From the NCBI GenBank assembly GCA_022819505.1, contig JAJEHD010000017.1, forward strand, positions 1,516-65,515: a DNA stretch of 64,000 nucleotides. The letters run 5' to 3'. The DNA is from Acidimicrobiia bacterium. Its GTDB lineage: Bacteria > Actinomycetota > Acidimicrobiia > Acidimicrobiales > Aldehydirespiratoraceae. This document shows positions 1 through 32,997 of the stretch, piece after piece; position 1 is the first letter of the stretch, and each line of letters begins with the position of its first letter. The position numbers were made by a program, and so were the translations under genes. The notes under the pieces were generated by a model, which ran no database searches, was not told the DNA's origin, and saw only the letters and a program-made list of their open reading frames with translations.

Positions 1-2588
1 TCCTCGAAGCTCTGCAGGAGCGCCGGTTCCACGCCGCCACCAATGCGTTGAGGCCGCGCCACACCTACGGGACTTCGGGTCGGGTGCTGATCGGGGATGC
101 TGCCGGGCACTACCACCCGCTGACGGCGGTGGGGATGACCCTCGGCTTCGGTGATGCGTTCACGCTGGCTGACAGTGGCGACTTTCGCGACTTCGCCAGG
201 AAGCGGACCCAGCAGACCCGCGCGCCGGAGCTCCTCGCCATGGGGCTGTACGAGGTGTTCGCCGACCACAGGGCGGAGGCCGTCGCGCTCAGGCGCACGA
301 TCTACCGGCAGTGGCGCGAGAAGCCCGCAGTCCGCGACCGCACCATCCGGCTGCTCGCCTGTGAGGACACCTCGGTTGCCAGCCTGAGTTGGTCTCTCGG
401 GACGGTAGCGACACGGGCGGTCGCGCCGGAGATCACGCAGTCCTACAGGCTCTCGGCCTGGCGCCGCACACACCGCCTGGCGCACGCGCTGGCGGTTCGC
501 ATCTTCTCTCTCGGTCGTGGGATGCGACAGCTCCGTAAGGCGGGCGCCGTCGTTGCGAAGCAGGAACGGGCGCGGGAAGCCCTGTCCGGCGCGTTTCCGG
601 TCTCCATGCCGCGGCCCGGCACCGACGCGGGGCCCGGCCGCGTCGAGGAGCCCGACCCGCCCGATGCCTCCCCGGCGCTCAGGAGCGCGACCGCGCACCT
701 GTTGAGCCTTCAGCAAGGTGACGGCTCCTGGGAGGGCGAGGTGGTGTGGTGCCCCATGCTCACCGCGCAGTACGTGCTGCTGCACCACATCACACAGCAG
801 CCGCTCGCCCCGGACCGGCGCCAGCTCGTGCTGCGCTCCTTCGAGCACACCCGCCTCGAATCAGGCGCCTGGGGTCTGCACGAGCACTCGCCACCGCACC
901 TGTTCGTCACGACGCTGGTGTACGTCGCGGCGAGACTGCTGGGCGTCGGACGCAACGATCCGTTGATCGAGCCAGCCGGGCGGTTTCTTCGGGCAGAGGG
1001 GGTGCTCAACATCCCGACCTGGGGCAAGTTCTGGCTTGCTCTGGTCAATCTCCACGACTGGCGAGGCGTCAACCCCGTTCTGCCGGAGTTGTGGCGGCTG
1101 CCGCGCCGGGTTCCGCTGCATCCTTCGAACTGGTACTGCCACACCCGGCTCATCTACATGGCGATGGCGGCCATCTACCCGGTGCGGTTCCAAGCACCCG
1201 TCACGCCCGTGATCGCATCGTTGCGGGAGGAGTTGTTCGGCGAGGGTTTCGCCGACCTGGACTTCGCCGCGTCCCGCAACCGGCTGCGGGACGCCGACCT
1301 GTTCGCCCGCCCCGGCGTGTGCCTGCGCGCCGGGTACGGGCTGGCACGGTGGTACGAACAGTTCGGAAGCAAGCGCCTGCGGGCCCGCTGCACCGCCGAA
1401 CTCGTCGATCGCATCCGATGGGAGCTACGGACCACCGACCACACGAGCATCTCGCCGGTCAGCGGCCTTCTCAACATTCTCTGCCTATGGCTGCATGACC
1501 GCGACGACGCCGACTGCCGCAAAGCTCTGGCCCGGCTTGACGGCTGGATCTGGGAGGACGAGGAGGCCGGAACACGAGTCGCCGGGGCAAGGAGCGCTTC
1601 CTGGGACACCGGGTTCGCTCTGCAGGCGCTGGCGGCCGCGCCGGGGGTCGAGGGGGTCACGGGCGCGCGGCGGCGCGGTGCCGATTTCCTGCGCCGCCAG
1701 CAGATCGCTACCAGCTTCGAAGGGTTCCGCGAAGCCTTCCGGATGGACCCCGACGGCGGCTGGTGCTTCGCCGGGGCGTGGCACGGCTGGCCGGTGACGG
1801 ACTGCACCGCAGAGGCGGTGCGGGGCATGATCGCAGCCGATCCCGAGGCCGCGAGGTCGGAGACGCTCGGCGACGCCGTCCGCTTCATGCTGCGCGGCCA
1901 GAACCGCGACGGCGGCTTCGGCAGCTACGAGTCGCGCCGCTCGGCGGTCGGTCTCGAGTGGCTGAACCCCGCGGAGATGTTCGGCGAGTCGATGACCGAG
2001 CACTCCCATGTCGAGTGCACGGCGTCCTGCCTGGCCGCGTTCGCCGCTTGCCGGCGGCACTCGCCCGAGGTTCTGGGCGCGGAGGCCGCGAGCGCCGTCG
2101 GGCGGGCCGACTCGTGGCTGCGCCGGGCCCAGGAGCACGACGGGTCGTGGCGAGGCGTGTGGGGCGTTCAGTACATCTACGGCACCTTCTTCGGGATCAG
2201 GGGCCTGCTGGCCGCCGGGGCCGCTCCCGCCGATCCGGCGCTGAGGGCCGCCTGCCGTTGGCTGCTCGACCGCCAGCGGCCGGACGGCGGTTGGGGCGAG
2301 CACTACCGCGGCTGCCTGACCGGGCGCTACGTCGCCCACGACGCGAGTCAGGTCATCCACACCGCGTGGGCGCTGATCGCCCTCCTCGAGGCCGACGACC
2401 CGGACTGGGCCGCGATCGCCCGGGGTGCGCGGTTCCTGATCGACACCCAGGAGGCTGACGGGCAATGGCCCAAGCAGGACTCAGCCGGGGTGTTCTTCCG
2501 CACCGCGCTTCTCGACTACGTCCTGTACCGGCAGTACTTCCCGCTCCACGCCCTCGCCCTCTACGAGCAGCGCCGCCCGATCAGGTGA
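1..2588 (+). CDS. Squalene monooxygenase (C-terminal part) fused in frame to oxidosqualene cyclase; 5' end lies outside the window
   Basis: Frame 3 is open from nt 3 (LEALQERRFHAATNAL precedes the listed TTG at 48). The N-part has the squalene-epoxidase-type motif GDAAGHYHPLTAVGMTLGFGDA. The C-part has repeated QW-type motifs (DGSWEGE, DGGWCF, DGGFGSYE, DGSWRGVWG, DGGWGEH, DGQWP) and the OSC catalytic motif VTDCTAE. Confidence 0.8.
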   Translation, partial: LEALQERRFHAATNALRPRHTYGTSGRVLIGDAAGHYHPLTAVGMTLGFGDAFTLADSGDFRDFARKRTQQTRAPELLAMGLYEVFADHRAEAVALRRTIYRQWREKPAVRDRTIRLLACEDTSVASLSWSLGTVATRAVAPEITQSYRLSAWRRTHRLAHALAVRIFSLGRGMRQLRKAGAVVAKQERAREALSGAFPVSMPRPGTDAGPGRVEEPDPPDASPALRSATAHLLSLQQGDGSWEGEVVWCPMLTAQYVLLHHITQQPLAPDRRQLVLRSFEHTRLESGAWGLHEHSPPHLFVTTLVYVAARLLGVGRNDPLIEPAGRFLRAEGVLNIPTWGKFWLALVNLHDWRGVNPVLPELWRLPRRVPLHPSNWYCHTRLIYMAMAAIYPVRFQAPVTPVIASLREELFGEGFADLDFAASRNRLRDADLFARPGVCLRAGYGLARWYEQFGSKRLRARCTAELVDRIRWELRTTDHTSISPVSGLLNILCLWLHDRDDADCRKALARLDGWIWEDEEAGTRVAGARSASWDTGFALQALAAAPGVEGVTGARRRGADFLRRQQIATSFEGFREAFRMDPDGGWCFAGAWHGWPVTDCTAEAVRGMIAADPEAARSETLGDAVRFMLRGQNRDGGFGSYESRRSAVGLEWLNPAEMFGESMTEHSHVECTASCLAAFAACRRHSPEVLGAEAASAVGRADSWLRRAQEHDGSWRGVWGVQYIYGTFFGIRGLLAAGAAPADPALRAACRWLLDRQRPDGGWGEHYRGCLTGRYVAHDASQVIHTAWALIALLEADDPDWAAIARGARFLIDTQEADGQWPKQDSAGVFFRTALLDYVLYRQYFPLHALALYEQRRPIR

Positions 2589-3924
2589 GCGCGGTGGCCC
2601 GCCTGCGCGACACGAATGGAGGGTCGAGCACCGTGGCCCGCATGTCCATCGTCGGGAGTTCGCCGCCACCCCATTTGATGACGACTTCGGTTCCCGGCTC
2701 GGTCAAGTCCACGTTGATGCGGCCGAACGAGAACACTCGCCGCAGTGTCGGGCTGTAGCAGACGCTCGTCGCCCATCCGACCGGCTCACCGTCGTGGACG
2801 ATCGGGTGCGCTTCGGGGAACACGGGATGTGGCAGCTGTATTGGCGGCGGTGACAGCTCGTCCCTGAACTGCGCCGCGAACAGCTCGATCACGTCGTCGC
2901 TGTTCCATACCAGCCCCTTCATCCGCCGGGCCGGTCCCCCCGCGTCGATCTCCGCCTGCAGCGCGGCCTTGCCCATGAAGTCGTCGTCGCGGTCGAGTCC
3001 GATGAGATAGTCGAGGTTGAGTTCGAACGGTGAGCACAGGCTCATCTCCGGATCCATCTGGTTGCGGCGCAGGATGCCGGGATCACCCTCGAAAGCGCAC
3101 TGGTAGTCGAAGTGCAGCATCACCAGGCCGGCCTCGGCCCGGGTCAGCCTCGAGGTGTAGTTGCCGAGGAATCCGACCCCGTGCTGGCCGCCGACGTCGA
3201 CGAGGTGGGCGACCACGTCGTTGGTCCGGGCGGCCTCGACGTAGATCTCGTAGCCGACCTCACCGGTGAACCCCTGCCGCAGGATGTAGGACGGGATTCC
3301 GGCAATGTCGGTGGACTGCAGCCGTGAGAAACCGAGTTCCTCCATCGACCGCCCGACGGCGTCGTTCATCAGCGCGGTGGAGTTGGGCCCCTGGATCGAC
3401 AGGAGGCAGTAACGGGTGCGGATGTCCTCGATCAGCACGTCGAACTGGCCGAGCTCGACCACCTCCCGCAGCCAGCTCTCAATCTCGTCCGTCGTGATCA
3501 TGTACGAGTCCTCCGACACTCGCGTGATCAGTGGATCCTGGACGACCTTTCCGTCGTCACGCACCAGCACCGTGTACATCGACTGGCCGACTTCGATGTC
3601 GGCGAAGTCCTTCCTGGTCTGGATGAACCTCATGAACGGGTGTACATCCGGGCCCGACACGTTGAACTTGCAGATCGGGCTCCAGTCGCCGATCACCACA
3701 TTCTCACGGAGCTGGATCGCCTCCTGGTACCAGCCGACGTACTCGTCCACGATCAGGAAGGGGCCCCATTGCGTCCACCTCTGGGTCTTGCTGGCCAACT
3801 CCATCTGCCCGGCGCCGGGAACAAAGAACATGGGCCGCTCTGCCCCCAGGGGGAGGTCTGTCCTCAAGGACTGCCGGTACCGGTCCTGGTCGTAAGGCCC
3901 CTGGTAGCTGCCTGTCTCGAGCAT
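2581..3924 (-). CDS. GcvT/aminomethyltransferase-fold protein (tetrahydrofolate-dependent demethylase-like)
   Basis: 447-aa ORF with GcvT-like blocks (LLSIQGPNS, FTGEVGYEIYV). Size resembles DmdA/LigM-type enzymes. ATG at 3924 is preceded by AAGGTAGGGAAG. Substrate unknown. Confidence 0.55.
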   Translation of the reverse strand: MLETGSYQGPYDQDRYRQSLRTDLPLGAERPMFFVPGAGQMELASKTQRWTQWGPFLIVDEYVGWYQEAIQLRENVVIGDWSPICKFNVSGPDVHPFMRFIQTRKDFADIEVGQSMYTVLVRDDGKVVQDPLITRVSEDSYMITTDEIESWLREVVELGQFDVLIEDIRTRYCLLSIQGPNSTALMNDAVGRSMEELGFSRLQSTDIAGIPSYILRQGFTGEVGYEIYVEAARTNDVVAHLVDVGGQHGVGFLGNYTSRLTRAEAGLVMLHFDYQCAFEGDPGILRRNQMDPEMSLCSPFELNLDYLIGLDRDDDFMGKAALQAEIDAGGPARRMKGLVWNSDDVIELFAAQFRDELSPPPIQLPHPVFPEAHPIVHDGEPVGWATSVCYSPTLRRVFSFGRINVDLTEPGTEVVIKWGGGELPTMDMRATVLDPPFVSRRRATALT

Positions 3925-4035
3925 GGCTTCCCTACCTTGAGTAGCTGACTACTGAGAGTTCCGACGCTATACCGGTGGCGGCGCAGCAAGCCGATCGAGT
4001 CGAGTTCTTGGCTGCGGGGCTAGGAGGATCAGGGC

Positions 4036-5175
4036 ATGGACTTCGAGGTCGACCGTCGAGACTTTCGCCGCACGCGGATCGCTGCGGGCCGGAGGCCAGG
4101 GCTGAGCCCGGGCCAGATCCGGCTGGAGATCGAGCGGTTCGCGTTGACGACCAACAACGTGACCTACGCGGTGGTCGGCGACATGTTCGACTACTGGGGC
4201 TTCTTCCCCACCGAGGCGCCGTGGGGGCGGCTGCCGGTCATGGGGCTCGGCTCGGTGGTCGAGTCGGCCCACCCCGGCATCGCGGCCGAGGGCCGGCACT
4301 TCGGCTTCTACCCGATGTCGTCGGAGGTGGTGATCACCGCCGAGCCGCGCTCCGGAGCGGTCGGGGCCCGGCCCGACGGGGCCCGGTCAGGCGGCGAGGT
4401 CGCCTTCCGCGACGTCGGAGCGCATCGCGCACAGCACGCCGCGACCTACACCGACTTCCGCGACGTCGCCACCGACGCGACGTTCGACTTGGACAGGGTC
4501 GACGAGTACCTCCTTCTGTGGGGCATGTTCATGACCTCGTTCCTCGTCGACGACTACCTCGGCGACCCTGCCGCCCAGGGCGGGATGTTCCGCGGCGCCG
4601 GCCAGACGCTGGTCACCAGCGCATCCTCGAAGACGTCGATTTGCTTGGCCGCCTGCCTGGCCCTACGCGACGGCCATCACAGCATCGGTGTGACATCGCC
4701 GCGCAACCGGGCCTTCGTCGAGGGTCTCGGCCTGTACGACGAGGTGATCACCTACGGCGAGATCGACCGGACCGACGCCAGGGTCGCCTCGGGCCTGGTC
4801 GACATGGCCGGCAGCGGCCCGGTGCGGTCGGCGATCCACACGCACTTCGCCGACAACCTGAAGTTCTCCATCGCGGTCGGCGCCACCCACCGGGCGGACA
4901 TGGGCAGCGACGGCGACCTCCCAGGCACCCCGCCCGAGTTGTTCTTCGCGCCCGCACAGAGCGCCAAGCGTGCCAAGGACTGGGGACCCGACGAGTTGGC
5001 GAACCGGACCGCCCGGGCGTTCAACGACCTCCTGGACCAAACCGAGCGATGGCTGACCGTGGTGCACCGGACCGGCTCCGACGGCGTCGAGGCCACCTAC
5101 CGGGAACTGCTCGAGGGCCAAGCCGACCCGTCCATGGGCTACGTCTGCTCGATGAGCAAGGACGGCCTGTCCTGA
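4036..5175 (+). CDS. DUF2855 family protein (MDR-dehydrogenase-like)
   Basis: The N-terminus MDFEVDRRDF...FALTTNNVTYAVVGDMFDYWGFFP is the pattern I recognise for DUF2855. Strong SD (AGGAGG) lies 7 nt before the ATG. Confidence 0.65.
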   Translation: MDFEVDRRDFRRTRIAAGRRPGLSPGQIRLEIERFALTTNNVTYAVVGDMFDYWGFFPTEAPWGRLPVMGLGSVVESAHPGIAAEGRHFGFYPMSSEVVITAEPRSGAVGARPDGARSGGEVAFRDVGAHRAQHAATYTDFRDVATDATFDLDRVDEYLLLWGMFMTSFLVDDYLGDPAAQGGMFRGAGQTLVTSASSKTSICLAACLALRDGHHSIGVTSPRNRAFVEGLGLYDEVITYGEIDRTDARVASGLVDMAGSGPVRSAIHTHFADNLKFSIAVGATHRADMGSDGDLPGTPPELFFAPAQSAKRAKDWGPDELANRTARAFNDLLDQTERWLTVVHRTGSDGVEATYRELLEGQADPSMGYVCSMSKDGLS

Positions 5176-5241
5176 AGCCTGGACCGGCGCGCTCGCTGGG
5201 TAGCACCTAGGCATGGGAAGGCCCTGACCTGGGGTTTCGTT

Positions 5242-5284
5242 AGTCGGGCTGAGGAGATTTGAACTCCCGACCTTCGGTCCCCCA
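5242..5284 (-). repeat. att-type direct repeat: copy of tRNA-Pro from anticodon loop to 3' end (1 mismatch)
   Basis: gtcgggctgAggagatttgaactcccgaccttcggtcccccag matches 9701-9743 with one mismatch. No matching 5' acceptor, D arm or 5' strand of the anticodon stem follows. Confidence 0.85.
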
Positions 5285-5432
5285 GTTGCGCAAAGGCCGT
5301 TCCAGCCGGTACCAACGAGTACCGAAAATCCCATCTGACATGGGGTTTTGCAGATTCGGCTTCACAACCCGTACCTGCGAATAACCCCTAAAAACGGATC
5401 GTCCGTTAGAAGTTCCGTTAGAAGATTCGCCT
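5285..5432. repeat. Conserved element-end sequence (copy A), homologous to 8533-8667
   Basis: Shared blocks with copy B: ccggtacc.acgagtacc.aaaat, ccatctgac, gttttgcagattcggcttcaca, cgtccgttagaagattcg. Confidence 0.7.
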
Positions 5433-5476
5433 GCGGATGACGCTCCCGTCGTGGCCCGCACGCCGTTTGTCCGAGA

Positions 5477-5869
5477 CTAGGGCAACCGCGTCACGCGAAG
5501 TCGGATCCAGTCCGTGAGGTCATCCACTGAGAGGTCCCCGGAGGCAACCTGGACGACCGTCTTGAAGGCCTCCTCGACCGGTAACAGGTCCAGATCGTAC
5601 CCGTTCGCGTTCAAGAACTGAAGTGTGGCCAACACGGCGACGCGCTTGTTGCCGTCGATGAATGCGTGGTTGCGCGCAAGCCCGAACAGCAACGAAGCAG
5701 CCTTGGCCTCCACAGTTGGGTAGAACTCCTCACCGGCGAAGCCGGCACCCGGCCGTGCGACAGCCGAGTCTGCAAGTCCAAGATCTGTCACATGCATGAG
5801 CGCGTCCACCTCGAGCCCGAGAACCTCGCACGCGATGGCGAGCACGTCGTCGAGTTCAAGGTAGATCAC
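5477..5869 (-). CDS. doc: Doc (death-on-curing) Fic-fold toxin
   Basis: 130 aa with the Fic/Doc motif HAFIDGNKRVA. It starts 2 nt after the stop of the upstream RHH gene. Confidence 0.85.
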   Translation of the reverse strand: MIYLELDDVLAIACEVLGLEVDALMHVTDLGLADSAVARPGAGFAGEEFYPTVEAKAASLLFGLARNHAFIDGNKRVAVLATLQFLNANGYDLDLLPVEEAFKTVVQVASGDLSVDDLTDWIRLRVTRLP

Positions 5870-5870
5870 T

Positions 5871-6098
5871 TCAGCCGTCTGCGAGAATGCTCAGCAGCTC
5901 CTCATGGCGCCGAAGGTTGCGCTTCAGCATCGCTTGAAACTCCGGATCGCGGCGCCGGCGCTCGACATGCTCGGCCAGCGCATCTCGAATGACATCGCTC
6001 ACGGTGGTGTCCTCGACCTCCGCAATCGTCCGCACCCTCTCTGCGAGGTTCTCGTCAATACGCAATGTCATGCTCTTGGTATCTCCCTGCGGTGCCAT
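5871..6098 (-). CDS. Ribbon-helix-helix (CopG/Phd-like) antitoxin
   Basis: Start chosen at MAPQGDTKSMTLRIDENLAERVR (ATG 6098 preceded by AGGAGGG). The MTLRIDENL beta-strand start is typical of RHH. It is adjacent to doc. Confidence 0.75.
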   Translation of the reverse strand: MAPQGDTKSMTLRIDENLAERVRTIAEVEDTTVSDVIRDALAEHVERRRRDPEFQAMLKRNLRRHEELLSILADG

Positions 6099-6403
6099 CT
6101 GGCCCTCCTGTGGCGGTGTCCTGATCACAAGAATACACCTTGGTGGTGAGAATGCAAGATACCTAGATATCTGGCTCCCAGGCGCCAGCGGGCCAACGGG
6201 GGACGCGGGACGCGCTGCCTGCCACCTCGGTACGCCGATGCGGTCGAACACGGTGGTGCGGCAACCGCACGGTGGTGCATCTGCCCAGAGCCAGAAGAAT
6301 GAGCAAGATGCACAGAGCGAGGGCGCTCACGAGATCTTCCTCAAGTCTTCTGGAGGGACTTTGGTCATCCGAAGGCGCACGCGGAGGCGTCCGGGACGCC
6401 CCC

Positions 6404-6581
6404 CTCGAGGACTTCGACCTGCGGGACGTCACGCTGTTCCTGAGCGATTGGAGCGGTCCGATGGGTCTCGACTTCGCTCGTCGGAATCCGGGTCGAGTCA
6501 AGAGGCTCGTCATCGCCACCTGGTGCTGGCCGGTGAACCGCGACTCTCGCCTCTGGTTCGTCAGTCGGATGATGGCGAACC
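6404..6581 (+). pseudogene. Alpha/beta-hydrolase (haloalkane-dehalogenase-like) gene fragment
   Basis: Only an internal block is recognisable: LEDFDLRDVTLFLSDWSGPMGLDFARRNPGRVKRLVIATW (nucleophile-elbow region). No credible N- or C-terminal parts. Confidence 0.45.
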
Positions 6582-6691
6582 CGCCAAGGCAGTTTCGAAT
6601 CAGGCGGCGTCGCGGAACGAGGTTAACCCCGGTCGGTGGCGCCACAGACGCCGTTAGATCCGCCGATCCTCCGGGAACTCTTACATAAATC

Positions 6692-7723
6692 TCAGGTCCG
6701 AGGCGAGAACCGATCAGCTCTCCTCGTCTCCGGGCTGTGATCATCGTCAAAGAAACGGCCTTCAACAAAGTCCAAGAAATCAGGAACGTCACTCTGCTTC
6801 AGTTGTAGTTCGCCATCTACTACAAGGTGACCTAGTTTTCTTTGTTCAAGTGCCTTCAGAAACGCTGAACTATCTAAGTCAAGATCCGCCAACCGCCCGT
6901 AGACTAGATTGTGCAGTCTCCTTGCGTTCCTGGGACCACTGTTGCAAGCAATCCTGAGCGCATCAAGACTACCTGCTGTAAGGGGAATACACTCATTGAG
7001 TGCCGCGTCAACCGCGTCGACATTAGGGTCAACATGCTGCATCACGAGATCTACATCTCGGAATAGAACCTGGACCGAGCCATCCGAGATAATTGCGACA
7101 TCTTCGGGTCCAACTACAATATCAACCCTCTCATCTATGACAATGTCAGGCTGCTCCATGCGTTTCAGGGTGTCTCCGTATTGAAGATACCGCAGCCCCG
7201 GCTTCAAGGACCGCCTCGGATTGGCCTGGCGGATGAACCCCACGAAGGAGTTGCTTATGTGAAATGAAATAGCGTAAAGATTGAATCTTGAGACTTGACG
7301 AAGATCTGCAGCTGACAATACTGGGTGCTGATCGGTCTCGTCAATGATCCTTAGGGCTTCAGCCACGCCGAACAACTCATCTGGACCGTTTGCATCCGCC
7401 GAGAGCGAATCGTCACGCGTCAGCCCTCGCCTATTCTTCATCTTCATCGAGCGTGGTATCTCACCTCTCTCAAGCATGAAGTGCTCATCCTCTTCGAGTG
7501 CTCCGAACGGAGCGTAAGGACGTCCAGTAGATCGGCCCAAGAAATCTAGAGCGGAGAGCCCAATTTGCCGAAGATCTGCAAACAGGTCCTGATGGATCTC
7601 GATGTTGTAGCAGTCCATTAGCCCGGATGCCTTGCGATATCCGACGATAAACCTAGGATCACCCTCTAGGCTCGTTGCCGCCCACGTGTTGTTCATGGGT
7701 AATCTGTTCCTCCTTTCGAACAA
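6692..7723 (-). CDS. DUF4868-like protein, candidate KwaB of a Kiwa-type defence pair
   Basis: About 340-aa soluble protein directly downstream of, and overlapping, a 4-TM protein gene. The locus is AT-richer than its surroundings. The C-terminal pattern (DFLDFVEGRFFDD...) resembles what I recall of DUF4868. The start may be MNNTW at 7696. Confidence 0.5.
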   Translation of the reverse strand: MFERRNRLPMNNTWAATSLEGDPRFIVGYRKASGLMDCYNIEIHQDLFADLRQIGLSALDFLGRSTGRPYAPFGALEEDEHFMLERGEIPRSMKMKNRRGLTRDDSLSADANGPDELFGVAEALRIIDETDQHPVLSAADLRQVSRFNLYAISFHISNSFVGFIRQANPRRSLKPGLRYLQYGDTLKRMEQPDIVIDERVDIVVGPEDVAIISDGSVQVLFRDVDLVMQHVDPNVDAVDAALNECIPLTAGSLDALRIACNSGPRNARRLHNLVYGRLADLDLDSSAFLKALEQRKLGHLVVDGELQLKQSDVPDFLDFVEGRFFDDDHSPETRRADRFSPRT

Positions 7724-8354
7724 AGAACCTTCCGAACCTGACGACCGAAACCGATTGATCGGTTGCTAAGCGTGCCGTCCGTGGAACCAAGACTACAGCG
7801 ATTGGATCAATCTTGGTACTCGTTCTCGTGCGAGCGCGCACAACGCGGTATCCAAATGCGTAGAGAGTCGGATTGATCGCAGCGAGGTCGGACTGAACAA
7901 ATATCGCCCAAACCACGACGAAGAACACCAGTATTCCGAGAACTTCCTGGATCGTAGAGAGTTCGAAGCCAACAAACGGTAACAGAAAGGTCGCCAAGTA
8001 GGCCGCTATTGCTCCTGACTGATCTTGAATGTCATAGAATTCCATTTGGATACTGCCCTTGCGGAGAGCGCTGCGAGGGAGGCGCCAGGCATCGACCAGA
8101 CCCCAGGCCGCCCATGCAGCCGCCAACCAGAAGACGTACATTCTGATCTGGCACGACCGCCAGTCGCATGAGGTTTGGATTGCCAAGATCAGGGCTAGCG
8201 GTGCGAAGGCTACCAAGAACAGCCGGAACAACCGCAATAGTGCTGTCGCGTCCTGCCCGTTCATGCCGTCAAACGTACTCCCGCCGTGTGACAAGGTCCT
8301 CGTCCGCGCGAGATCAGAGTTCGTAGAGGTCGAGCGAACCGTCGTGGAGCCCAA
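7659..8354 (-). CDS. Four-TM membrane protein, candidate KwaA
   Basis: Four hydrophobic helices (LFRLFLVAFAPLALILAI, YVFWLAAAWAAWGLV, AIAAYLATFLLPFVGF, VLGILVFFVVVWAIFV). It precedes the DUF4868-like gene. The start is more likely MNGQD at 8264. Confidence 0.5.
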   Translation of the reverse strand: MGSTTVRSTSTNSDLARTRTLSHGGSTFDGMNGQDATALLRLFRLFLVAFAPLALILAIQTSCDWRSCQIRMYVFWLAAAWAAWGLVDAWRLPRSALRKGSIQMEFYDIQDQSGAIAAYLATFLLPFVGFELSTIQEVLGILVFFVVVWAIFVQSDLAAINPTLYAFGYRVVRARTRTSTKIDPIAVVLVPRTARLATDQSVSVVRFGRFFVRKEEQITHEQHVGGNEPRG

Positions 8355-8490
8355 GACGACGTTGGCCGCCGGGCCAGCGCCTCCCGGGCGACGGTCCTTA
8401 CGTGCTCACCGACAAGAGATGGGAGTTCTGGTGCCAACCGTTCTCAAGGAGATGTTCGTGCCACATGGCGACGTAGAGCCTACGCCTCTT

Positions 8491-8532
8491 GTCGTGGGTG
8501 GGAGGCTTCAACTCTCGACCTTCGGTCTCCAG
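8491..8532 (-). repeat. Degraded copy of the tRNA-Pro 3'-half att repeat
   Basis: gtcgtgggtgggaggcttcaactctcgaccttcggtctccag aligns to 9701-9743 with roughly three quarters identity. It is followed by the same conserved flank as copy A. Confidence 0.6.
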
Positions 8533-8667
8533 TTGCTGAAGGGCTATTGCACCCGGTACCGACGAGTACCAAAATGTCCATCTGACGTAGTGTTTTGCAG
8601 ATTCGGCTTCACATCTCGTAACTGTGGATACCCCCCATAACGAACCGTCCGTTAGAAGATTCGACCT
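8533..8667. repeat. Conserved element-end sequence (copy B)
   Basis: Homologous to 5285-5432. Contains tgtggata (8623-8630) and cgtccgttagaagattcg (8646-8663). Confidence 0.7.
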
Positions 8668-8755
8668 GTGGGTCGCACCGGGAGTCCGGTCGGTTGATGG
8701 CGGTCAACGACACTATTCTGGATGTGGCAAGGCGCTACCGGGAGGATCAACGGCC

Positions 8756-8935
8756 ATGACCACTGTGCCTATCGCCGACACCGGCCACGATCCGCTTGAG
8801 GAGCCGGTGACACTCGCCGAGCTGGACGCGAGCGTCGGGACCGGGCCCGATGTGCCCGAGCACGAGGTCGCCGTGCGCTACTACACGGATGAAGCGTTCC
8901 TGACGGCGATCCAACTGCGCCGCAACGGCCTCACC
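8756..8935 (+). pseudogene. Orphan 5' gene fragment (hypothetical), truncated at the junction with the IS fragment
   Basis: ATG at 8756 is preceded by GGGAGGA. MTTVPIADTGHDPLEEPVTLAELD... runs into the antisense of the truncated transposase gene. Confidence 0.2.
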
Positions 8936-9417
8936 ACCGACGCCTTGGAGCCGTCAGTGAGCATCACCCCGCCCATCACGTCCATCTGCCACAGCTCCAT
9001 CGCCCGGCTGCGCTCCCAGCGCTTGTAGTCAGACCTCTTGCGGCGCCTCGCCACAGGCTGGATCAGCCCGTGACGCACCAAACACCGATACACCGACGAC
9101 CTCCCCGGCAACGGCACCACCCCGCGGGCCTCGAGACCGAACAACAACGTGCGCGGACCCCACCCCGGATTCTCCCGCCGCAGCCCCACCACCAAAGCCT
9201 CCACCTCCGCCGGCATCTGATGCGGGCACGAACCAGGCCGCGGCGACTGATCCGCCAGCCCCGCCAAACCCCTCGACGCATAACGGCGCAGCCACCGATG
9301 CACCGTCTGGCGGGTCACCCCGAACCGAAGGGCCACATCCTTCACCGCAGCGCCGTCGCGCAACACCTCCAACACCGCCGCATGCCGCTGCTCCACCACA
9401 CCGAGCTCCACCAACAC
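8881..9417 (-). mobile_element. IS481-family transposase gene, N-terminal fragment only (truncated)
   Basis: HTH region (VALRFGVTRQTVHRWLRRY) and the start of the DDE domain (ELWQMDVMGG) are present. IS481-like similarity then ends and a stop follows about 28 codons later. No terminal inverted repeats identified. Confidence 0.7.
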
Positions 9418-9605
9418 GACGACCCCCTCCCATGTGACGACCAGGCCGCCACAAGTGAAGAAGGCTCAGCACCACCAGACGTGGACCGCCCCCGTGTAAC
9501 ACAGCTACCGGAACCAGTGTCGCCCAGCTACCGGAACCGCGTCCGAGAAGTGTCACACACCTACCGGAGCCAACGCGTCAAGCATGTACCGGGACAGGAC
9601 AAGAT

Positions 9606-9630
9606 CGTCCGTTAGAATTTTCGTTAGAAA
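9606..9630. repeat. CGTCCGTTAGAA motif pair next to tRNA-Pro (third locus of this motif)
   Basis: cgtccgttagaa (9606-9617) plus tcgttagaaa (9621-9630). The same motif occurs at 5399-5428 and 8646-8663. Confidence 0.6.
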
Positions 9631-9701
9631 TTTGGGCGATCCCAGAGTTATCCACAGGTGAGCCTGGATCAGAAATGTACTCTTACCTTGGATTTTATCT
9701 G

Positions 9702-9776
9702 TCGGGCTGGGGAGATTTGAACTCCCGACCTTCGGTCCCCCAGACCGACGCGCTAACCAAGCTGCGCCACAGCCCG
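9702..9776 (-). tRNA. tRNA-Pro (anticodon GGG)
   Basis: Hand-folded 75-nt cloverleaf: acceptor CGGGCTG/CAGCCCG, D stem GCGC/GCGC, anticodon stem TCGGT/ACCGA with loop CTGGGGG, T arm GGGAG-TTCAAAT-CTCCC, discriminator A. CCA is not encoded. Confidence 0.9.
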
Positions 9777-9795
9777 AATGGGCTGAGGCTAGCGG

Positions 9796-10008
9796 CTACA
9801 GCAGGAGGGCGACACCCTGCACGGCCCGCCAGGCTAGGTAGACCGTGGCCGCTCCCAGCAGCAGCCAGAAGTGCCACGGGATGCGCTCCGCCACCGGTGC
9901 GGAGGGCTCGGGCGGATGCTGGACCTCGGCGCCGCAGCCGGGGCAGGCGCCCTCAGATGTGAGGGTGGACGGCGTCAGGTATCGCTCGCAGGACTGGCAC
10001 CATGCCAT
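9796..10008 (-). CDS. Small zinc-ribbon membrane protein
   Basis: 70 aa with CxxC...CxxC (CQSCERY...CPGCG) followed by one TM helix (WHFWLLLGAATVYLAW). Confidence 0.45.
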   Translation of the reverse strand: MAWCQSCERYLTPSTLTSEGACPGCGAEVQHPPEPSAPVAERIPWHFWLLLGAATVYLAWRAVQGVALLL

Positions 10009-10012
10009 GGGC

Positions 10013-11110
10013 TCAGTCGCGGCGGATGGCCATGATGGCGGTGTCGTCGCCTATCGACCCGCCTGCGAAGTCCTTGGCCGCGTCGAGCAGCGACTTGCAC
10101 AGCACGTCGGGGGCGGCGTTGAGGTCGCGCTCCACCGACTTGATGATGCGGGCCTCGCCGAACATCTGCCGGCCGGCTCGGGCCTCGGCCAGGCCGTCGG
10201 TGTACATCACCACCAGATCCCCCGACACCATCGGGATCTCCCGGGAGAAGTACGTCGAACCCGGGTCGAGCATCAGCAGCGGGCCTGTCGAGCGCAGCGG
10301 CATCACCCCGTCCGCCTGGAACAGGAACGCAGCCGGGTGACCGGCCGACGAGTAACGCAGCGTCCCGGCCTCGGTGTCGAACACCACCACGCACGCCGAG
10401 ATGAACTCCTCGTTGCGGTCCCCGGCCGAGAGCTGGGCGTTGATCTCTTCGAAGGCCTGGGCCGGGTCGCGGAACTGCCTAAGGAACACCCGCAGCAGGT
10501 ACTTGGCCTGGAACGCGGTGATGGACGACTCGATGCCGTGGCCGGCCACATCGCCGATCACCGCGGCCACCCGGTGGCGCCCCACCCGGTGCACGTCGAA
10601 GAAGTCGCCGGCCATCAAACCCGAGCCGGCCTGGTAGACCCGGCCGATCTCGAAGCCGCTGAAGTCCGGGACCTCCTCGGGCGCCAATCGGGCCGCCCAC
10701 GCCTTCGGGGCGAGCTGCTCCTGCTCAAGCGCCTGCTCGGCCCGACGCTCCAGCCCGATGCGGTTGCGGGCCATGCGGGCCTCCTCCACCGAGGTGCGGG
10801 CCCACCACACCGACAGCAACGCAGGCAGAGCCAGAAGCCCGAGCACCACTGCGACGTTGGCGGCGTCCACCCGGCCAATCAGCAGAGCCACCGGCACCAG
10901 CAGCGCGTAGACGATCACGCCGTGGATCTCCTTGCGCAGCGAGGTCATGGCCAGGATCCGCGCTTCGGGATGCGCGCCGGCGTCGGCCTCGACCAGGCGC
11001 AGGACCCGCAGCCGGTGACGAGCCGAGCGGATGTAGAAGATCATGGCCAGCGCGCAGGACAGGGCCAAGAGATCGAGAACGATCGTTCTCACACGCACCC
11101 CTCCCCGCAC
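10013..11110 (-). CDS. Membrane-anchored PP2C/SpoIIE-family serine phosphatase
   Basis: N-terminal TM helices, then GDFFDV...VIGDVAGHGIESS...VVMYTDGLAEA, typical of SpoIIE/PP2C. Confidence 0.8.
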   Translation of the reverse strand: MRGGVRVRTIVLDLLALSCALAMIFYIRSARHRLRVLRLVEADAGAHPEARILAMTSLRKEIHGVIVYALLVPVALLIGRVDAANVAVVLGLLALPALLSVWWARTSVEEARMARNRIGLERRAEQALEQEQLAPKAWAARLAPEEVPDFSGFEIGRVYQAGSGLMAGDFFDVHRVGRHRVAAVIGDVAGHGIESSITAFQAKYLLRVFLRQFRDPAQAFEEINAQLSAGDRNEEFISACVVVFDTEAGTLRYSSAGHPAAFLFQADGVMPLRSTGPLLMLDPGSTYFSREIPMVSGDLVVMYTDGLAEARAGRQMFGEARIIKSVERDLNAAPDVLCKSLLDAAKDFAGGSIGDDTAIMAIRRD

Positions 11111-26664: not shown

Positions 26665-26737
26665 GGGGCTATAGCTCAGTTGGTAGAGCGCTTCCATGGC
26701 ATGGAAGAGGTCAGGGGTTCAATTCCCCTTAGCTCCA
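26665..26737 (+). tRNA. tRNA-Ala (anticodon GGC)
   Basis: Hand-folded 73-nt cloverleaf: acceptor GGGGCTA/TAGCTCC with the G3:U70 pair, anticodon stem CTTCC/GGAAG with loop ATGGCAT, T arm AGGGG-TTCAATT-CCCCT. CCA is not encoded. Confidence 0.9.
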
Positions 26738-26905
26738 CCCCTCAAATCACATAAGCAGAGGTCAGAGGCTATAAATGGCGTAGTCACCGGCTCTGTATGT
26801 TGCTTTTGTTGTCACTATCGGGCCGCGAAGAGGCGGGCGGGAGCGCGTGCTGTCAGTCTCGGAACCAGGGCTGGGGCGGCTACGGCCCAGGCAGCGAGTG
26901 GTGGC

Positions 26906-27787
26906 TTACAGGAACAGGCCTGGGTCGCCGCGTCCGGCCTGAGGGTCCTGTCGGGTGCGTTGTTGTTGGATGATGTGTTGTTGGCGCAGCCGGTGCAGTT
27001 CGCCCGGTTCGAAGCAGTTGCTCCAGCGGTCGCGCTCTTCGGTGACGTAGCGGTCGACGCGCTCGAAGATCTCGTCGAAGTCGGCTTGTAGGGGGAGTTG
27101 GCCTTGTTGTTGGAGGTCGCGCCAGGCTCTGGCAATGCGGTCGCGGCGTCCGAGGTAGGTGCTGCGGATATCGGCGGGATGGTTGCGATGGCCGTACTCG
27201 CGGGCGGGGTCGTTGTAGCTGTCGGCGTACATGTCCCACGCCTTGGCGAAGTCCACTTCTGGTGATCGGGCGAGCTGGTCGAGGTCATAGATGTCGCGTG
27301 GCGCGCTTCTGCGGGACAGGCAGCGCAACTTGTCGGCGGTGACCGCGGTGGCGGTGTATCCCAGAATGGGCGCCGCGTCGGGACGTGTGCCCCAACGCGC
27401 GTTGATGGGCCACAGCTGGGTGGGAACCGATGAGGGCTCGGTCAGCAGGGTGGCTTCGGCGCGGATCGGTGCCGGTGTCGCCTCGGCGACGATGTTGACG
27501 TTCACCGCGCCGGCGGTTTGGGTTGTGAGTGGGGTACCGACGCTGGCTGCGGCTCGCGTCGCGGCGGCATCGACTAGCGCCCGGAACTGTTGGGGTGAAC
27601 CGGCCCAGTCGAAGTCGAGATCCTCGGACCAGCGGTAGTCCTCGAACACGCAGACCCGCAACAGGGTCCCACCCTTGAACACCAACCGGTCGTCGCCGGC
27701 CTCTGCGAGCGCCGCGACGACATGATGCAAGATCGCGTCGCGGCGGCTGTGGGCGTCGAAGCGCTGGATGCTCACAGCCGAGTTCAA
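26906..27787 (-). CDS. AbiEii/AbiGii nucleotidyltransferase toxin (type IV TA), copy 1
   Basis: FKGGTLLRVCVFEDYRWSEDLDFDW signature. Its start overlaps the stop of the upstream AbiEi-like gene. Confidence 0.8.
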   Translation of the reverse strand: MNSAVSIQRFDAHSRRDAILHHVVAALAEAGDDRLVFKGGTLLRVCVFEDYRWSEDLDFDWAGSPQQFRALVDAAATRAAASVGTPLTTQTAGAVNVNIVAEATPAPIRAEATLLTEPSSVPTQLWPINARWGTRPDAAPILGYTATAVTADKLRCLSRRSAPRDIYDLDQLARSPEVDFAKAWDMYADSYNDPAREYGHRNHPADIRSTYLGRRDRIARAWRDLQQQGQLPLQADFDEIFERVDRYVTEERDRWSNCFEPGELHRLRQQHIIQQQRTRQDPQAGRGDPGLFL

Positions 27788-28554
27788 TACAGCAGGTGCT
27801 CGGCAAGCTCAGCGGGTGTGGTGTGCCACCAGACCCGCCGACGGCGATCCAACATCACCGCGGTGTCCTGGGGCTCCCGGGGGTCAAGTCCCAGCCACCG
27901 CTCCCCTGACCCGGCCCGCTCACACAACGCTGCGTGGGCGCGGTCAACCGCCACCAACGGCCGCGCGTACGCCGGTATCGGACCTTCACTCGCCGCGACC
28001 GCGGCCAGAGCTTCCGCCACCGACGCGACCCGTCGCAGCCCCGCGCGCCAACCAAGCTGCGCCGCCACCGCGGCCAACTCCTCAGGATCAAACAACTGCG
28101 GCGACTTCGACAGCGCCTGCGCAATGATCTCATCGGCACCAACAACCCACCACGCGTGCTGAGCGCACTCCAACAACGCTCGCGCCGGCGTCGACATCCA
28201 CGTGTCGGCACCAACCTCCACAGCAGCCACCGACAGCGTCGCCGAACCCTCAGCCACATGACGCCACCCACCGCGGCGGGCCTGCCCATACCACGCTCCC
28301 GGCGCGCTAACCGTCACACCAGCCATCAACGCCATCCCCCCCAAAGACAACGCGCTGCGATGCGAGATACGCCTAGGCACACGCCCATACACCTCCCTCA
28401 GCCGCCGCTCAAGAGACTCAGACAGAACCGAACCGCCGACCCTGGCCAAAGCAGGCAACCCTGGAGCTCCCCCAAACCCCGAACCAGAACACACCATCAC
28501 ATCAGACACACCACACCCCCCTTCTGCCGCTACACGCCCCAACCCTACCCGCAA
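27784..28554 (-). CDS. AbiEi-like antitoxin, copy 1 (appears to lack the N-terminal wHTH)
   Basis: Shares TWMSTPARALLECAQH and QLGWRAGLRRVASVAEAL with copy 2 (31318-32169). TTG start. 256 aa. Confidence 0.6.
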   Translation of the reverse strand: MRVGLGRVAAEGGCGVSDVMVCSGSGFGGAPGLPALARVGGSVLSESLERRLREVYGRVPRRISHRSALSLGGMALMAGVTVSAPGAWYGQARRGGWRHVAEGSATLSVAAVEVGADTWMSTPARALLECAQHAWWVVGADEIIAQALSKSPQLFDPEELAAVAAQLGWRAGLRRVASVAEALAAVAASEGPIPAYARPLVAVDRAHAALCERAGSGERWLGLDPREPQDTAVMLDRRRRVWWHTTPAELAEHLLY

Positions 28555-28826
28555 GCCACAGATACCTCATCGCCTCGGCGCGCCACAAGCAGCCAATAGC
28601 CGTTGATCGCTCACACCAAGGCTGCCGACAGAAGCGACACGACATGCTGGCAGGCCTTCAGAACCTCACCACGAAACAAACCCACAACGGCCGCCTGTGG
28701 ACCAACCAAGTGGTCGTCATCTAAGTGCCGTTTGCAAACCGCGGTGGCAACGGGCCTATCATCAAAGCGGCCTGACGGCTCCGGTTAGTAGGCTCCGGCT
28801 GAACAAGACCGTACGCCCCAGGTGAC

Positions 28827-28859
28827 GGGACCCCGGACCGCACGGGGTCCCTTTCTTTT
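28827..28859 (+). terminator. Intrinsic terminator with no annotated upstream gene
   Basis: GGGACCCCG-GACCGCA-CGGGGTCCC followed by TTTCTTTT. Confidence 0.65.
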
Positions 28860-29005
28860 GTGCTGCCTACCGCTGTCTATGAGGTGGCGACGGTCCTGAC
28901 ATGTCTCTCGGTGTGGACGTCCGGACCTGTGCGCGCAGCAAACAAGAGCGGGAGCACCTGCCGCCTCGGCCGGCCAGGGGCCGACTGGACGCACGTCGGA
29001 CCTAC

Positions 29006-29011
29006 TAGGGT
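29006..29011 (+). promoter_or_regulatory. Candidate -10 element (TAGGGT) for a leaderless transcript starting at GTG 29019
   Basis: Fits TANNNT and lies 7 nt upstream of the GTG. No SD is present. Confidence 0.3.
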
Positions 29012-29018
29012 CGTATCA

Positions 29019-29468
29019 GTGAATGACGTGAACTTTCCCCCACAGGCGCCTGGAGGTGGCGAGCGGCGGGTGGGGCCGCTGCTGGCACGGCGGTATGTGG
29101 TGGTGGGCGAGCTGCCCGCGTTGATGGCGATCCCCGGGCGCGGCGCCGGCTACTTGCCGGTGGTGCAGTTCATCAAGGACTGGAACAATCAGCCCGAGTC
29201 AAGAGAGCTCATGCTCGCTGGTGGTCTTCGCGCAGGCACCGACCCAACGGCTGCGGTGAAGGTGGCGGCGGTGGTCCATGCTTTGTGCCAGCGCGACGCC
29301 CACCCGTTGCCGGAGTGGGTGCCTGCGGCGCGCTCGCCGGTTGATATGACGTTGGTGCCCGATGTGGACTTGGAGTCTTCCTATGGGCAGCGGCTGCGCC
29401 GTGACGCCCCTGGGGTGTGCCATTACCACGGGGTCTACTTCTCGGTTGTGGACCTCCGCTCGACGTGA
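29019..29468 (+). CDS. Hypothetical protein, putative antitoxin partner of the downstream nucleotidyltransferase
   Basis: Its stop overlaps the downstream GTG (GTGA at 29465-29468). No family recognised. The start is uncertain because the ORF is open from 28860. Confidence 0.4.
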   Translation: MNDVNFPPQAPGGGERRVGPLLARRYVVVGELPALMAIPGRGAGYLPVVQFIKDWNNQPESRELMLAGGLRAGTDPTAAVKVAAVVHALCQRDAHPLPEWVPAARSPVDMTLVPDVDLESSYGQRLRRDAPGVCHYHGVYFSVVDLRST

Positions 29469-30139
29469 CCGACTTCGGGTCGCCTATCCCGCCCGATCCG
29501 CTGCTGGGCGCGGCGGACATCCGGCGCATGTTCGACAAGCTGTCGTCGCATCTGAACGACGCTGGCTCCACGGGTCACCACCTGATGATCGCCGGCGGTG
29601 CGGCGTTGGCGCTGATGTGGGAGAACCGGCTCACCCACGACATCGACGTTCCCGAGCATCGCTTCCGCGCCCCGACCGACACCGACGCTGAGCGGCTCAC
29701 CACCGCGGTGGACTTCATCTCGATGCGGTTCCCCGCCGAGCTGGCCCGCGCCGCCCGTATGGTCGCCGACGCCGAGGGCCTACCACGCAACTGGCTCAAC
29801 GGCGCCGTTGCGATCTTCACCCCCGCCGGCGACCTCCACCCCCAGATCCTGCACCAAAGCGACTGCCTCACAGTCGAGGCACCCTCCCCCACGGTGCTGT
29901 TGGCCATGAAGCTGCACGCGGCGCGCCCGTTGGACCTCCAAGACGCCGCCCGGCTGACCCGAGACACCGCGATCACAGACCCCGACCAGCTGCTCGGGCT
30001 GGTCGCGGACGCGTACGGCGCCGACGTCGCCACCGCAGAAACCGCCGACTTCGCCCACCGCGCCCTGGAGCTCGCCCTGGACCAGAACCACGGCAGAAGC
30101 CGGCGGCTGCCGGGCCACGGATTCGGCGTCGGACTCTGA
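29465..30139 (+). CDS. Minimal nucleotidyltransferase-fold protein (DUF6036/AbiEii-related), putative toxin
   Basis: LMIAGGAALALMWENRLTHDIDV (hG[GS]...DxD NTase core) and TVLLAMKLHAARPLDLQDAARL. Confidence 0.55.
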   Translation: MTDFGSPIPPDPLLGAADIRRMFDKLSSHLNDAGSTGHHLMIAGGAALALMWENRLTHDIDVPEHRFRAPTDTDAERLTTAVDFISMRFPAELARAARMVADAEGLPRNWLNGAVAIFTPAGDLHPQILHQSDCLTVEAPSPTVLLAMKLHAARPLDLQDAARLTRDTAITDPDQLLGLVADAYGADVATAETADFAHRALELALDQNHGRSRRLPGHGFGVGL

Positions 30140-30148
30140 CCACGCTAC

Positions 30149-30168
30149 GGGACCGTTACCGCGGTCCT
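30149..30168 (+). terminator. Weak hairpin after the NTase gene
   Basis: GGGACCG-TTACCG-CGGTCCT, 10 nt after the stop. Only TT follows. Confidence 0.3.
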
Positions 30169-30607
30169 TGAGAGGCTGTCGCCGTCGGCCAACCCGGGAG
30201 TCACCCGCATCCTGCTTGAGGCCGGTCCCAAAGAGAGTACAGACTACTATAAGGTGCGGCATCGGTTGGTACTCGCTTACACGCACAGAGTGGCACCTAT
30301 CGCAGGTGGGAGCGCATCACCGACGGCTTCCCGGTGTGACGTCGCGGCCGCGTCATCACGTCGAGCTTTCGCACAACTCCACAGCGGTGCCCCGGCGCGA
30401 TCCGCGAACCCGCCCTGACCCGATGAGCCACCAACCCCGCCCCAACCGCCAGGCCCGGCGCACCGGCAATCCCGGCCGACACAACACGGCCCGCCCCCGA
30501 GCCGAACTCGAACTGACCAAGTACCCAGAACCACAGGTCCCGTTCCCGAGACGGACCGAAGGACCACACATCGAAACAGACCTCGTTTCAACAACAAGGA
30601 GGAAGCA

Positions 30608-30811
30608 ATGTCTCTAGACACCGGCGACGAGATGCCCGCAGAGGTGCTGCGGCCCCGCGAGGCAGCCCGATACGTGGGCATGAGCCGACCCACGATTGAT
30701 CGCTGGCGCAAAGCCGGCAAGTTCCCCAAGGCGCTACAACTCGGCGCTCAGGCCATCGGCTGGCGCCGCTCCGACCTTGATGACTGGCTCAACAGCAGGC
30801 CATCGGTGTGA
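30608..30811 (+). CDS. AlpA/excisionase-type HTH protein
   Basis: LRPREAARYVGMSRPTIDRWRKAGKFPKALQLGAQAIGWRRSDLDDWL. SD AAGGAGGAAG. Confidence 0.8.
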   Translation: MSLDTGDEMPAEVLRPREAARYVGMSRPTIDRWRKAGKFPKALQLGAQAIGWRRSDLDDWLNSRPSV

Positions 30812-30911
30812 TGACCGACCGTGCCGTCTGCCCGTGCCCGCCGCCGGATAGGCCAGGGTTGGGCCGCCAGGTGTCGCAGCGCGATTGACGGCGACGGTGC
30901 GGGGAGCTGAG

Positions 30912-31133: not shown

Positions 31134-31282
31134 GAGCACTCTGGCCCACGCATCGACCAAGCCCCTGTGGGAACGTCCGCGACGATTCGGGGGGGATTGC
31201 GTGACGGCGAATGCGAGCGCAGCTTGTGGCTATCGGGCAGCGGTGGGCTGCGGTGGCAGCGGGGGATCGAGCGACCGTGATG

Positions 31283-32978: not shown

Positions 32979-32979
32979 A

Positions 32980-32997
32980 AACCGCCAGTCGGCGGTT
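32980..32997 (+). terminator. Hairpin just after the AbiEii copy 2 stop
   Basis: AACCGCC-AGTC-GGCGGTT with a weak T tract. Confidence 0.35.

Follow-up and report, generated by a model that had tools for sequence, protein, structure and literature searches.

The window, the whole stretch of 64,000 nucleotides that was analysed (contig JAJEHD010000017.1 of an Acidimicrobiia bacterium), opens inside a gene that joins a squalene monooxygenase (SQMO) to an oxidosqualene cyclase (OSC) in one reading frame. Frame 3 of the plus strand is free of stops from nucleotide (nt) 3 to a TGA codon at nt 2586–2588, which overlaps the 3′ end of a convergent gene of the GCV_T family (2581–3924, minus strand). 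The 861 codons have a GC content at third positions (GC3) of 0.88, matching the real genes of the window (68.5% GC). The frame comprises the C-terminal part of the SQMO catalytic domain (amino acids (aa) 1–142, nt 3–428), with the 5′ end of the gene lying outside the window, followed by the C-terminal helical tail of the SQMO (aa 125–194, nt 375–584), an inter-domain connector (aa 195–222, nt 585–668) and a complete OSC domain (aa 223–861, nt 669–2585). The Pfam SE model (PF08491) matches aa 2–142 with 37.4 bits (cut-off 20.1); the match is confined to profile positions 107–261 of 276, in keeping with a gene cut by the window edge. The models SQHop_cyclase_N and SQHop_cyclase_C match aa 227–520 (160.8 bits) and aa 531–855 (182.9 bits), respectively. 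Two motifs can be read directly from the translation: the GD motif of flavin monooxygenases, GDAAGHYHPLTAVGMTLGFGDA (aa 31–52, nt 93–158), which contacts the FAD ribityl and pyrophosphate groups and has the SQMO-type form HPLTxxGM, and the catalytic VTDCTAE of the cyclase (aa 598–604, nt 1794–1814). The first-pass annotation of this DNA had described a single stop-free frame leading from an SQMO C-terminal region into a full-length cyclase and had quoted GDAAGHYHPLTAVGMTLGFGDA and the DCTAE motif; translation and Pfam bear out this description, and the presence of an SQMO and an OSC-type cyclase in one frame is confirmed.

The remainder of the gene is present on a second assembly. A database protein with 100% identity (P0001) is encoded on ENA contig L001, from sample KELL22-1, the name of which suggests that it belongs with the Ircinia study of Kelly et al. 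2022. L001 is 99.98% identical to window positions 1–10535 and reaches 856 nt further left, where the same frame carries the DG motif as VGADGRSS and RRYDVAIVGAGPVGS, in which the GxGxxG motif appears as VGAGPVGS, before a stop at L001 nt 34–36. The start given in the database, GTG160 on L001, truncates this Rossmann motif. TTG76, the sole canonical in-frame start that keeps it, is the probable start codon and would give a protein of approximately 1,122 aa. As L001 extends the same frame and matches the window, the N-terminal FAD-binding half expected to the left of the window edge does exist, and two independent assemblies agree on the junction between the two enzymes.

The N-terminal half was compared with known structures through P0003, a complete homologue with 90% identity. 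Its best sequence match in the PDB is human SQLE (6C6N, E-value of 1.6e-29), the next family being PqsL (8.6e-11). With an AlphaFold (AF2) model of P0003 (pLDDT 67.7, pTM 0.47), the top folds found by Foldseek are human OSC (E-value of 3e-28) and human SQLE (E-value of about 1e-21), and the TM-score to the SQLE entries 6C6N and 6C6R is 0.79–0.81 over the whole SQLE construct. The GD motif aligns to GDAYNMRHPLTGGGMT of human SQLE, and its positions are almost all invariant across 32 aligned fusions. The window and L001 together contain all the motifs of class-A flavoprotein monooxygenases (GxGxxG, the DG motif GADG, and GD with HPLTxxGM), and full-length relatives carry both PF08491 and PF01494. 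With a Pfam SE score above the cut-off and human SQLE as best match in both sequence and fold, the N-terminal part is SQMO-like, as had been proposed, rather than an unrelated FAD monooxygenase.

The best NCBIfam model for the cyclase half is TIGR03463 (osq_cycl), which matches with 714.7 bits over model positions 2–634 of 634, below its trusted cut-off of 851. The general squalene/oxidosqualene cyclase model TIGR01787 is passed (496.9 against a cut-off of 322.7), and the hopene cyclase model is failed (261.5 against 431.1). A PDB sequence search matches human lanosterol synthase (1W6K residues 77–722) with 439 bits and an E-value of 4e-130, compared with 190 bits and an E-value of about 1e-54 for squalene–hopene cyclase (SHC); the earlier assignment to the OSC type and not the SHC type is upheld by this comparison and favoured by the NCBIfam scores. 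SHC shares the double α/α-barrel fold and the QW repeats, but has the motif DxDDTA where the window has VTDCTAE, and scores far lower. Four canonical QW motifs (QxxDGxW) and a variant, QNRDGGF, are present. In the alignment with 1W6K, equivalents of human D455, C456, C533, H232 and Y503 are all found, D455 and C456 being the Asp and Cys of VTDCTAE, C533 the Cys of HVECTAS, H232 the His of WYCH and Y503 the Tyr of GGFGSYE. Human positions 453, 449 and 381 correspond to Val (that of VTDCTAE), His and Ala. Wei et al. 2016 (PMC4919349) found V453 to go with lanosterol and I453 with cycloartenol in all the bacteria that they examined, and of the triad T381 / C or Q449 / V453 only V453 is predictive in bacteria. 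Because the window cyclase has V453, lanosterol is the best guess under this rule and would be the most likely product of the fusion, with real uncertainty. The human structures 1W6K and 6C6N are the closest solved structures for the two halves, with the OSC catalytic Asp, Cys, Cys, His and Tyr and the SQLE motifs GxGxxG, DG and GD conserved. The human lanosterol synthase and SQLE differ in being separate proteins of the endoplasmic reticulum, with N-terminal extensions that are absent from the bacterial fusion.

The region between the two enzymes had been described as a linker of roughly 100 residues, most of which turns out to be the C-terminal helical tail of the SQMO itself. A stand-alone SQMO (P0147, 477 aa) aligns straight through it, to P0003 residues 7–460 with 56% identity; alignments of other stand-alone SQMOs end at P0003 residues 423–433, and those of stand-alone OSCs start at residues 466–478. 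In the model of P0003, the tail is composed of helices 374–394, 399–429 and 433–443 (aa 125–194 of the window). Residues 444–471 (aa 195–222, nt 585–668) lack secondary structure, with pLDDT below 50 at residues 454–466, and the OSC begins at residue 472. The tail includes a cationic amphipathic helix (aa ~150–190); its middle helix has a hydrophobic moment of 0.5–0.6 and a net charge of +4 to +5. No membrane-spanning hydrophobic segment was detected in the window-encoded C-terminal 861 aa (maximum Kyte–Doolittle 19-mer of 1.35), and the tail is plausibly an anchor to the membrane surface. Judged from the model and from the alignment of fusions, the true connector comprises approximately 22–28 residues, is rich in Pro and Gly, and is conserved in length. 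It contains 7 Pro in 28 residues, is also rich in Asp and Glu, and is predicted to be disordered. The stretch between FxxSMP and SPDAGPALRS measures 22 aa in 70 of 82 fusions (range 18–28), its sequence being variable; this conservation of length hints at a geometric constraint.

The fusion is widespread. In a protein search, more than 120 clusters (90% identity) came up, of which those listed are 1,090–1,170 aa long and carry FAD_binding_3, SE and both cyclase domains, except for two (738 and 739 aa) with cyclase domains only. A scan of one genome per GTDB species found relatives encoded at 532 places; among these 532, the 80 best matches were analysed, and all of them cover the whole query, are fused and have 64–96% identity. 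The window gene shares with this sponge-symbiont family the architecture, the length and this range of identity: a single open reading frame (ORF) of approximately 1,100–1,170 aa with an N-terminal SQMO, a C-terminal OSC and at least 64% identity to members. It differs in being an apparent orphan, the flanking genes discussed below being present in approximately 59 of 81 related loci. Record titles place the carriers in Acidimicrobiia, Acidobacteriota (Bryobacterales and Vicinamibacterales), Binatia, Thermodesulfobacteriota, Nitrospirales, Nitrospinaceae, Alpha- and Gammaproteobacteria, Opitutales and Chloroflexota, and a second search added metagenome-assembled genomes (MAGs) of Myxococcota and Deltaproteobacteria. 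Almost all of the best 80 are MAGs of sponge symbionts, with isolate names (SB06xx, APA, RHO, Spongia_Bin9, Ca. Porisulfidus, Ca. Poriferihabitaceae) that point to sponge microbiomes. Many of the fusions are located on complete chromosomes of 2–7 Mb, so mis-binning cannot explain this spread. Across at least 10 phylum-level lineages of sponge microbiomes, the pathway seems to take this fused form as a rule. The 50%-identity library contains more divergent fusion clusters (P0121–P0126, P0133 and P0136) beside unfused OSCs and SQMOs.

In a coarse neighbour-joining (NJ) tree of OSC domains, computed without support values, the majority of the fusions occupy a single region among the bacterial OSCs, where the sponge-symbiont sequences form a tight subclade. 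An NJ tree of 82 fusions groups them largely by class, with very short deep branches; all the Acidimicrobiia fusions form one clade (99% bootstrap), and the window fusion lies in a subclade with 100% support together with L003–L009 and L039. The GC content of the fusion follows that of the host flanks (r = 0.75) and thus gives no sign of very recent transfer. Pairwise dN/dS values (Nei–Gojobori, window gene against 14 relatives) are 0.18–0.31 overall, 0.13–0.35 for the SQMO and 0.14–0.25 for the OSC, and are highest in the tail and connector (0.30–0.66). Both catalytic halves are under purifying selection, orphan copies included.

Other natural fusions of early sterol enzymes are represented in public databases. 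These comprise an SQMO joined to a weak cyclase-like remnant and a squalene synthase (about 1,130–1,200 aa), an SQMO with a squalene synthase (854 aa), a squalene synthase with an OSC (1,022 aa), and an SQMO–OSC–sterol methyltransferase fusion of 1,509 aa (proteins P0210, P0214, P0224, P0265, P0243, P0191 and P0355).

In the literature, the only explicit mention found of such a fusion is that of ‘fused SMO/OSC homologs’ by Brown et al. 2023 (PMC10070321). Novelty of the fusion, which the first-pass annotation had assumed, cannot be maintained in view of this mention and of its wide distribution in sponge-symbiont MAGs. The main texts of Hoshino & Gaucher 2021, Santana-Molina 2020, Wei 2016 and a 2025 triterpenoid-cyclase preprint contain no mention of it, and two matches to ‘fused’ in engineering papers refer to solubility tags or GFP fusions and not to natural fusions. 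Kelly et al. 2022 (PMC9531527) reported a ‘cluster of steroid genes’ in 115 of 537 Ircinia MAGs from 10 phyla, with evidence of horizontal gene transfer and of purifying selection. Their LSS/ERG7 alignment has 3,765 positions, a length that fits a fused gene, although a fusion is not mentioned there. Stand-alone bacterial homologues have 42–56% identity to the SQMO half and 44–52% to the OSC half. The enzymes of Methylococcus capsulatus (MCA2872/MCA2873), Gemmata obscuriglobus, Stigmatella and other myxobacteria belong to the same families and share the predicted two-step chemistry, but these cultured sterol producers make two polypeptides from separate, adjacent sqmo and osc genes. The window fusion is a genuine member of a known family, one that is biochemically uncharacterised.

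In approximately 59 of the 81 related loci, the fusion ends a co-directional set of genes for an SdmB-like protein (NAD-epimerase/3-beta-HSD), an SdmA-like protein (Rieske/VanA_C), ERG4/ERG24 and a P450 in the CYP51 position, and a sterol methyltransferase (SMT) gene usually adjoins it. This operon is the steroid gene cluster (ERG24–CYP51–LSS) of Kelly et al. 2022. In the Acidimicrobiia loci, the fusion stands alone in nearly all cases, with one operon-bearing locus (L016) nested among them. Directly upstream of the orphan fusion, six loci (L012, L013, L015, L018, L019 and L047; ~9885–9993) retain a relic of the CYP51 C terminus of 29–33 aa, which is 58–90% identical to intact copies and has almost the same breakpoint in all six. 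The nested position of L016 and the six relics argue that the operon was lost within Acidimicrobiia, and the shared breakpoint points to one deletion in an acidimicrobial ancestor that took out the tailoring operon. For the organism of the window, the upstream sequence amounts to 75 nt before the probable start, at the end of L001; no CYP51 relic was detected upstream of its gene (L001 nt 1–200) or in its closest relatives, and those relatives for which 10 kb upstream are available (L003, L006, L007, L009 and L039) lack ERG24 and CYP51.

Several independent assemblies of the Acidimicrobiaceae clade break off close to the gene, the contigs stopping 160–830 nt upstream of the fusion (left ends of L001, L004, L005 and L008, and nt 1 of the window), which suggests that a repeat or a strain-variable region breaks assemblies there. 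A gene for a GPP34/GOLPH3-like domain (PF05719) joined to a cytochrome P450 lies near the sterol operon in 22 or more of the 81 loci (for example, L011 13433–15457, L021 15679–17688 and L023 15765–17798); its product may be an uncharacterised sterol-modifying enzyme. A further neighbourhood cluster, ‘c22’, was rejected as an over-extended ORF that overlaps the 3′ end of the fusion and is not a gene.

Our preferred reading, held with a probability of about 0.85, is that of a genuine single gene of approximately 1,122 codons (assuming the TTG start) encoding a bifunctional SQMO–OSC in a sponge-associated member of the Acidimicrobiia; the gene is very probably functional. The protein is made up of four parts: a class-A flavoprotein monooxygenase of the squalene-epoxidase family, a cationic-amphipathic helical tail, a proline-rich connector and a complete OSC. 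It would be monotopic on the cytoplasmic membrane, the FAD domain epoxidising squalene to (3S)-2,3-oxidosqualene with O2 and a reductant, and the tethered cyclase protonating the epoxide through the Asp of VTDCTAE to give a protosterol, most likely lanosterol. On this reading, the gene comes from a family of fused SQMO–OSC genes that passed between sponge-symbiont phyla, in most cases at the end of an sdmB–sdmA–erg24–cyp51 operon with SMT adjoining, and the lineage of the window retained the fusion alone. Some observations count against this reading. The TIGR03463 score of 714.7 falls below the trusted cut-off of 851, and A381 and H449 depart from the canonical lanosterol-synthase triad (T381 / C or Q449 / V453), of which only V453 fits. 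Y195 of human SQLE is replaced by a Phe that is invariant in 32 aligned fusions (F77 of P0003, on the L001 extension and outside the window). The P0003 model is moderately confident and, with a pTM of 0.47, domain packing or an inter-domain tunnel is not readable from it. No squalene synthase, CYP51, ERG24, SdmA/B or SMT was found in the 64 kb window by tblastn and Pfam searches, and the literature search gave no biochemical study, enzyme activity or lipid data for any fusion.

The GC-rich, low-complexity DNA at the junction, of a kind in which indel errors are common, and the finding that sqmo and osc are separate neighbours in cultured sterol producers (PMC7306690) could be taken to indicate an assembly or sequencing artefact, with two adjacent genes merged by a missed stop or by a frameshift. 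However, L001 is identical to the window across nt 300–700, where an error of this kind had been considered, the gene is one uninterrupted ORF in 81 of 81 related loci from various assemblers, long-read complete chromosomes included, and the junction varies in length by whole codons; an artefact is effectively already refuted. It is very improbable that the N-terminal domain is an FAD monooxygenase for another substrate (UbiH-, PqsL- or geranylgeranyl-reductase-like), which would leave no two-step enzyme from squalene to sterol. The NCBIfam matches of the SQMO fragment in the window are weak and of the UbiH family, the domain is only about 23% identical to human SQLE, and the Phe in place of Y195 fits such a view, but the Pfam SE score exceeds the gathering score and SQLE leads the PDB matches by 19 orders of magnitude in E-value, besides being the best fold with a TM-score of 0.8. 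The domain is, moreover, joined to an OSC whose substrate is just what a squalene epoxidase would supply, and in other genomes it lies in an operon with sterol-tailoring genes. A slightly better case, although still an improbable one, can be made for a real fusion that is a decaying leftover, functionless after loss of the tailoring operon: sdmB–sdmA–erg24–cyp51 are missing from the clade of the window, and sister Acidimicrobiia loci keep only the CYP51 relic upstream. On the other side, comparison with other orphan copies gives an overall dN/dS of 0.18–0.29 and shows constraint on both domains, the FAD motifs are preserved along with the catalytic residues, and none of the approximately 20 orphan loci contains a stop. 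Bacteria that make only protosterols, such as Gemmata, are known, which likewise speaks against decay. More weight is due to the possibility, unlikely as it is, that the enzyme works as proposed but makes cycloartenol, parkeol or an arborane- or other-type triterpenol instead of lanosterol. Neither A381 nor H449 is a lanosterol-synthase residue, His449 being that of cycloartenol synthase, and bacterial OSCs that make parkeol or arborinol are known (PMC7306690). Lanosterol is nevertheless favoured by the correspondence of V453 with lanosterol and I453 with cycloartenol in each bacterium of Wei et al. 2016 (PMC4919349), by the invariance of this Val (V847 of P0003) across the 32 fusions aligned, and by operons elsewhere that combine the fusion with CYP51, ERG24 and SdmAB, whose substrates are lanosterol-type protosterols.

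Channelling of the labile intermediate by the fusion, as the first-pass annotation had envisaged, is plausible. A more specific proposal is that the cationic amphipathic tail and the 22-aa connector keep the exit of the epoxidase next to the entrance of the cyclase at the membrane surface, so that oxidosqualene never equilibrates with the bilayer, and that the orphan constitutes a portable ‘minimal sterol pathway’; in this full form it is doubtful. The alternative that the fusion brings no gain by channelling, and persists since one gene is more easily transferred or co-expressed (co-inheritance or stoichiometry), has somewhat less than an even chance of being right. It is favoured by the spread across phyla at 64–74% identity (see also PMC9531527), by the predicted disorder of the connector, and by the other permutations that are also fused (SQS–OSC, SQMO–SQS and SQMO–OSC–SMT), which argue for a general tendency to co-inheritance rather than for a specific tunnel. 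The tight conservation of the connector length, with its hint of a geometric constraint, stands against it. The two explanations are not mutually exclusive. Should the channelling proposal hold, the acidimicrobial orphan would be a one-gene, horizontally portable pathway, with the protosterol used as such by the bacterium or by its sponge host.

Bacterial sterol synthesis bears on the origin of eukaryotic sterols and on the reading of sterane fossils, including the ‘sponge’ biomarkers, and the fused gene places the two oxygen-dependent committing steps in one transferable unit. Reading genes annotated as ‘LSS/ERG7’ or ‘FAD-dependent monooxygenase’ as bifunctional would correct reconstructions that report SQMO as missing, and the fusion offers a compact natural enzyme for the engineering of triterpenoid production. 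The window gene is an ordinary member of its family and mainly confirmatory, with the loss of the sterol-tailoring operon in its lineage as a twist. Specialists in bacterial sterols will not be surprised by the fusion, which is useful for the correction of annotations and as an experimental target.

On the 3′ side of the fusion, the window continues with the convergent GCV_T-family gene, a DUF2855 gene and small integrated islets at a tRNA-Pro gene. Beyond these lie housekeeping genes (a SpoIIE-type phosphatase, Der, RsmE, DnaJ, HrcA, LepA, HolA and ComEC), followed by an integrase island at a tRNA-Ala gene and by catabolic genes. Downstream synteny with Acidimicrobiaceae and Acidimicrobiales MAGs, at 82–96% nucleotide identity, supports the taxonomic placement. 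The neighbourhood is fluid even in close relatives, as in L002/L003 (13335–21239; a 90%-identical relative), where approximately 7 kb are inserted between the fusion and a DUF2855 remnant, compared with 2581–5175 in the window. This insert encodes a ROK regulator, a sugar ABC transporter, MTHFR and a non-CYP51 P450.

The stretch at 5224–9776 looks like two tandem islets integrated at tRNA-Pro(GGG) (9701–9776, minus strand), partial direct copies of the 3′ part of which are found at 5224–5285 and 8490–8530. The islets carry a Fic/RHH toxin–antitoxin pair and an IS-type helix–turn–helix ORF (8884–9465), and this stretch differs among related Acidimicrobiia loci. The region 26665–39567 is a probable integrative island, with tRNA-Ala(GGC) at 26665–26739, an AbiEii toxin gene at 26909–27808 and two tyrosine integrases at 33154–34455 and 38389–39567; it also contains ORFs that have no Pfam match, and few ORFs there passed the GC3-based gene filter. 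A Rieske ring-hydroxylating oxygenase (43446–44621) was the only match in the search of the window for sterol genes, and is unrelated. The cluster at 54335–61986, comprising an enoyl-CoA hydratase, an HpcH/HpaI-type aldolase/lyase, two family-III CoA-transferases, two acyl-CoA dehydrogenases and a MaoC-type hydratase, is a module for the degradation of organic acids or side chains.

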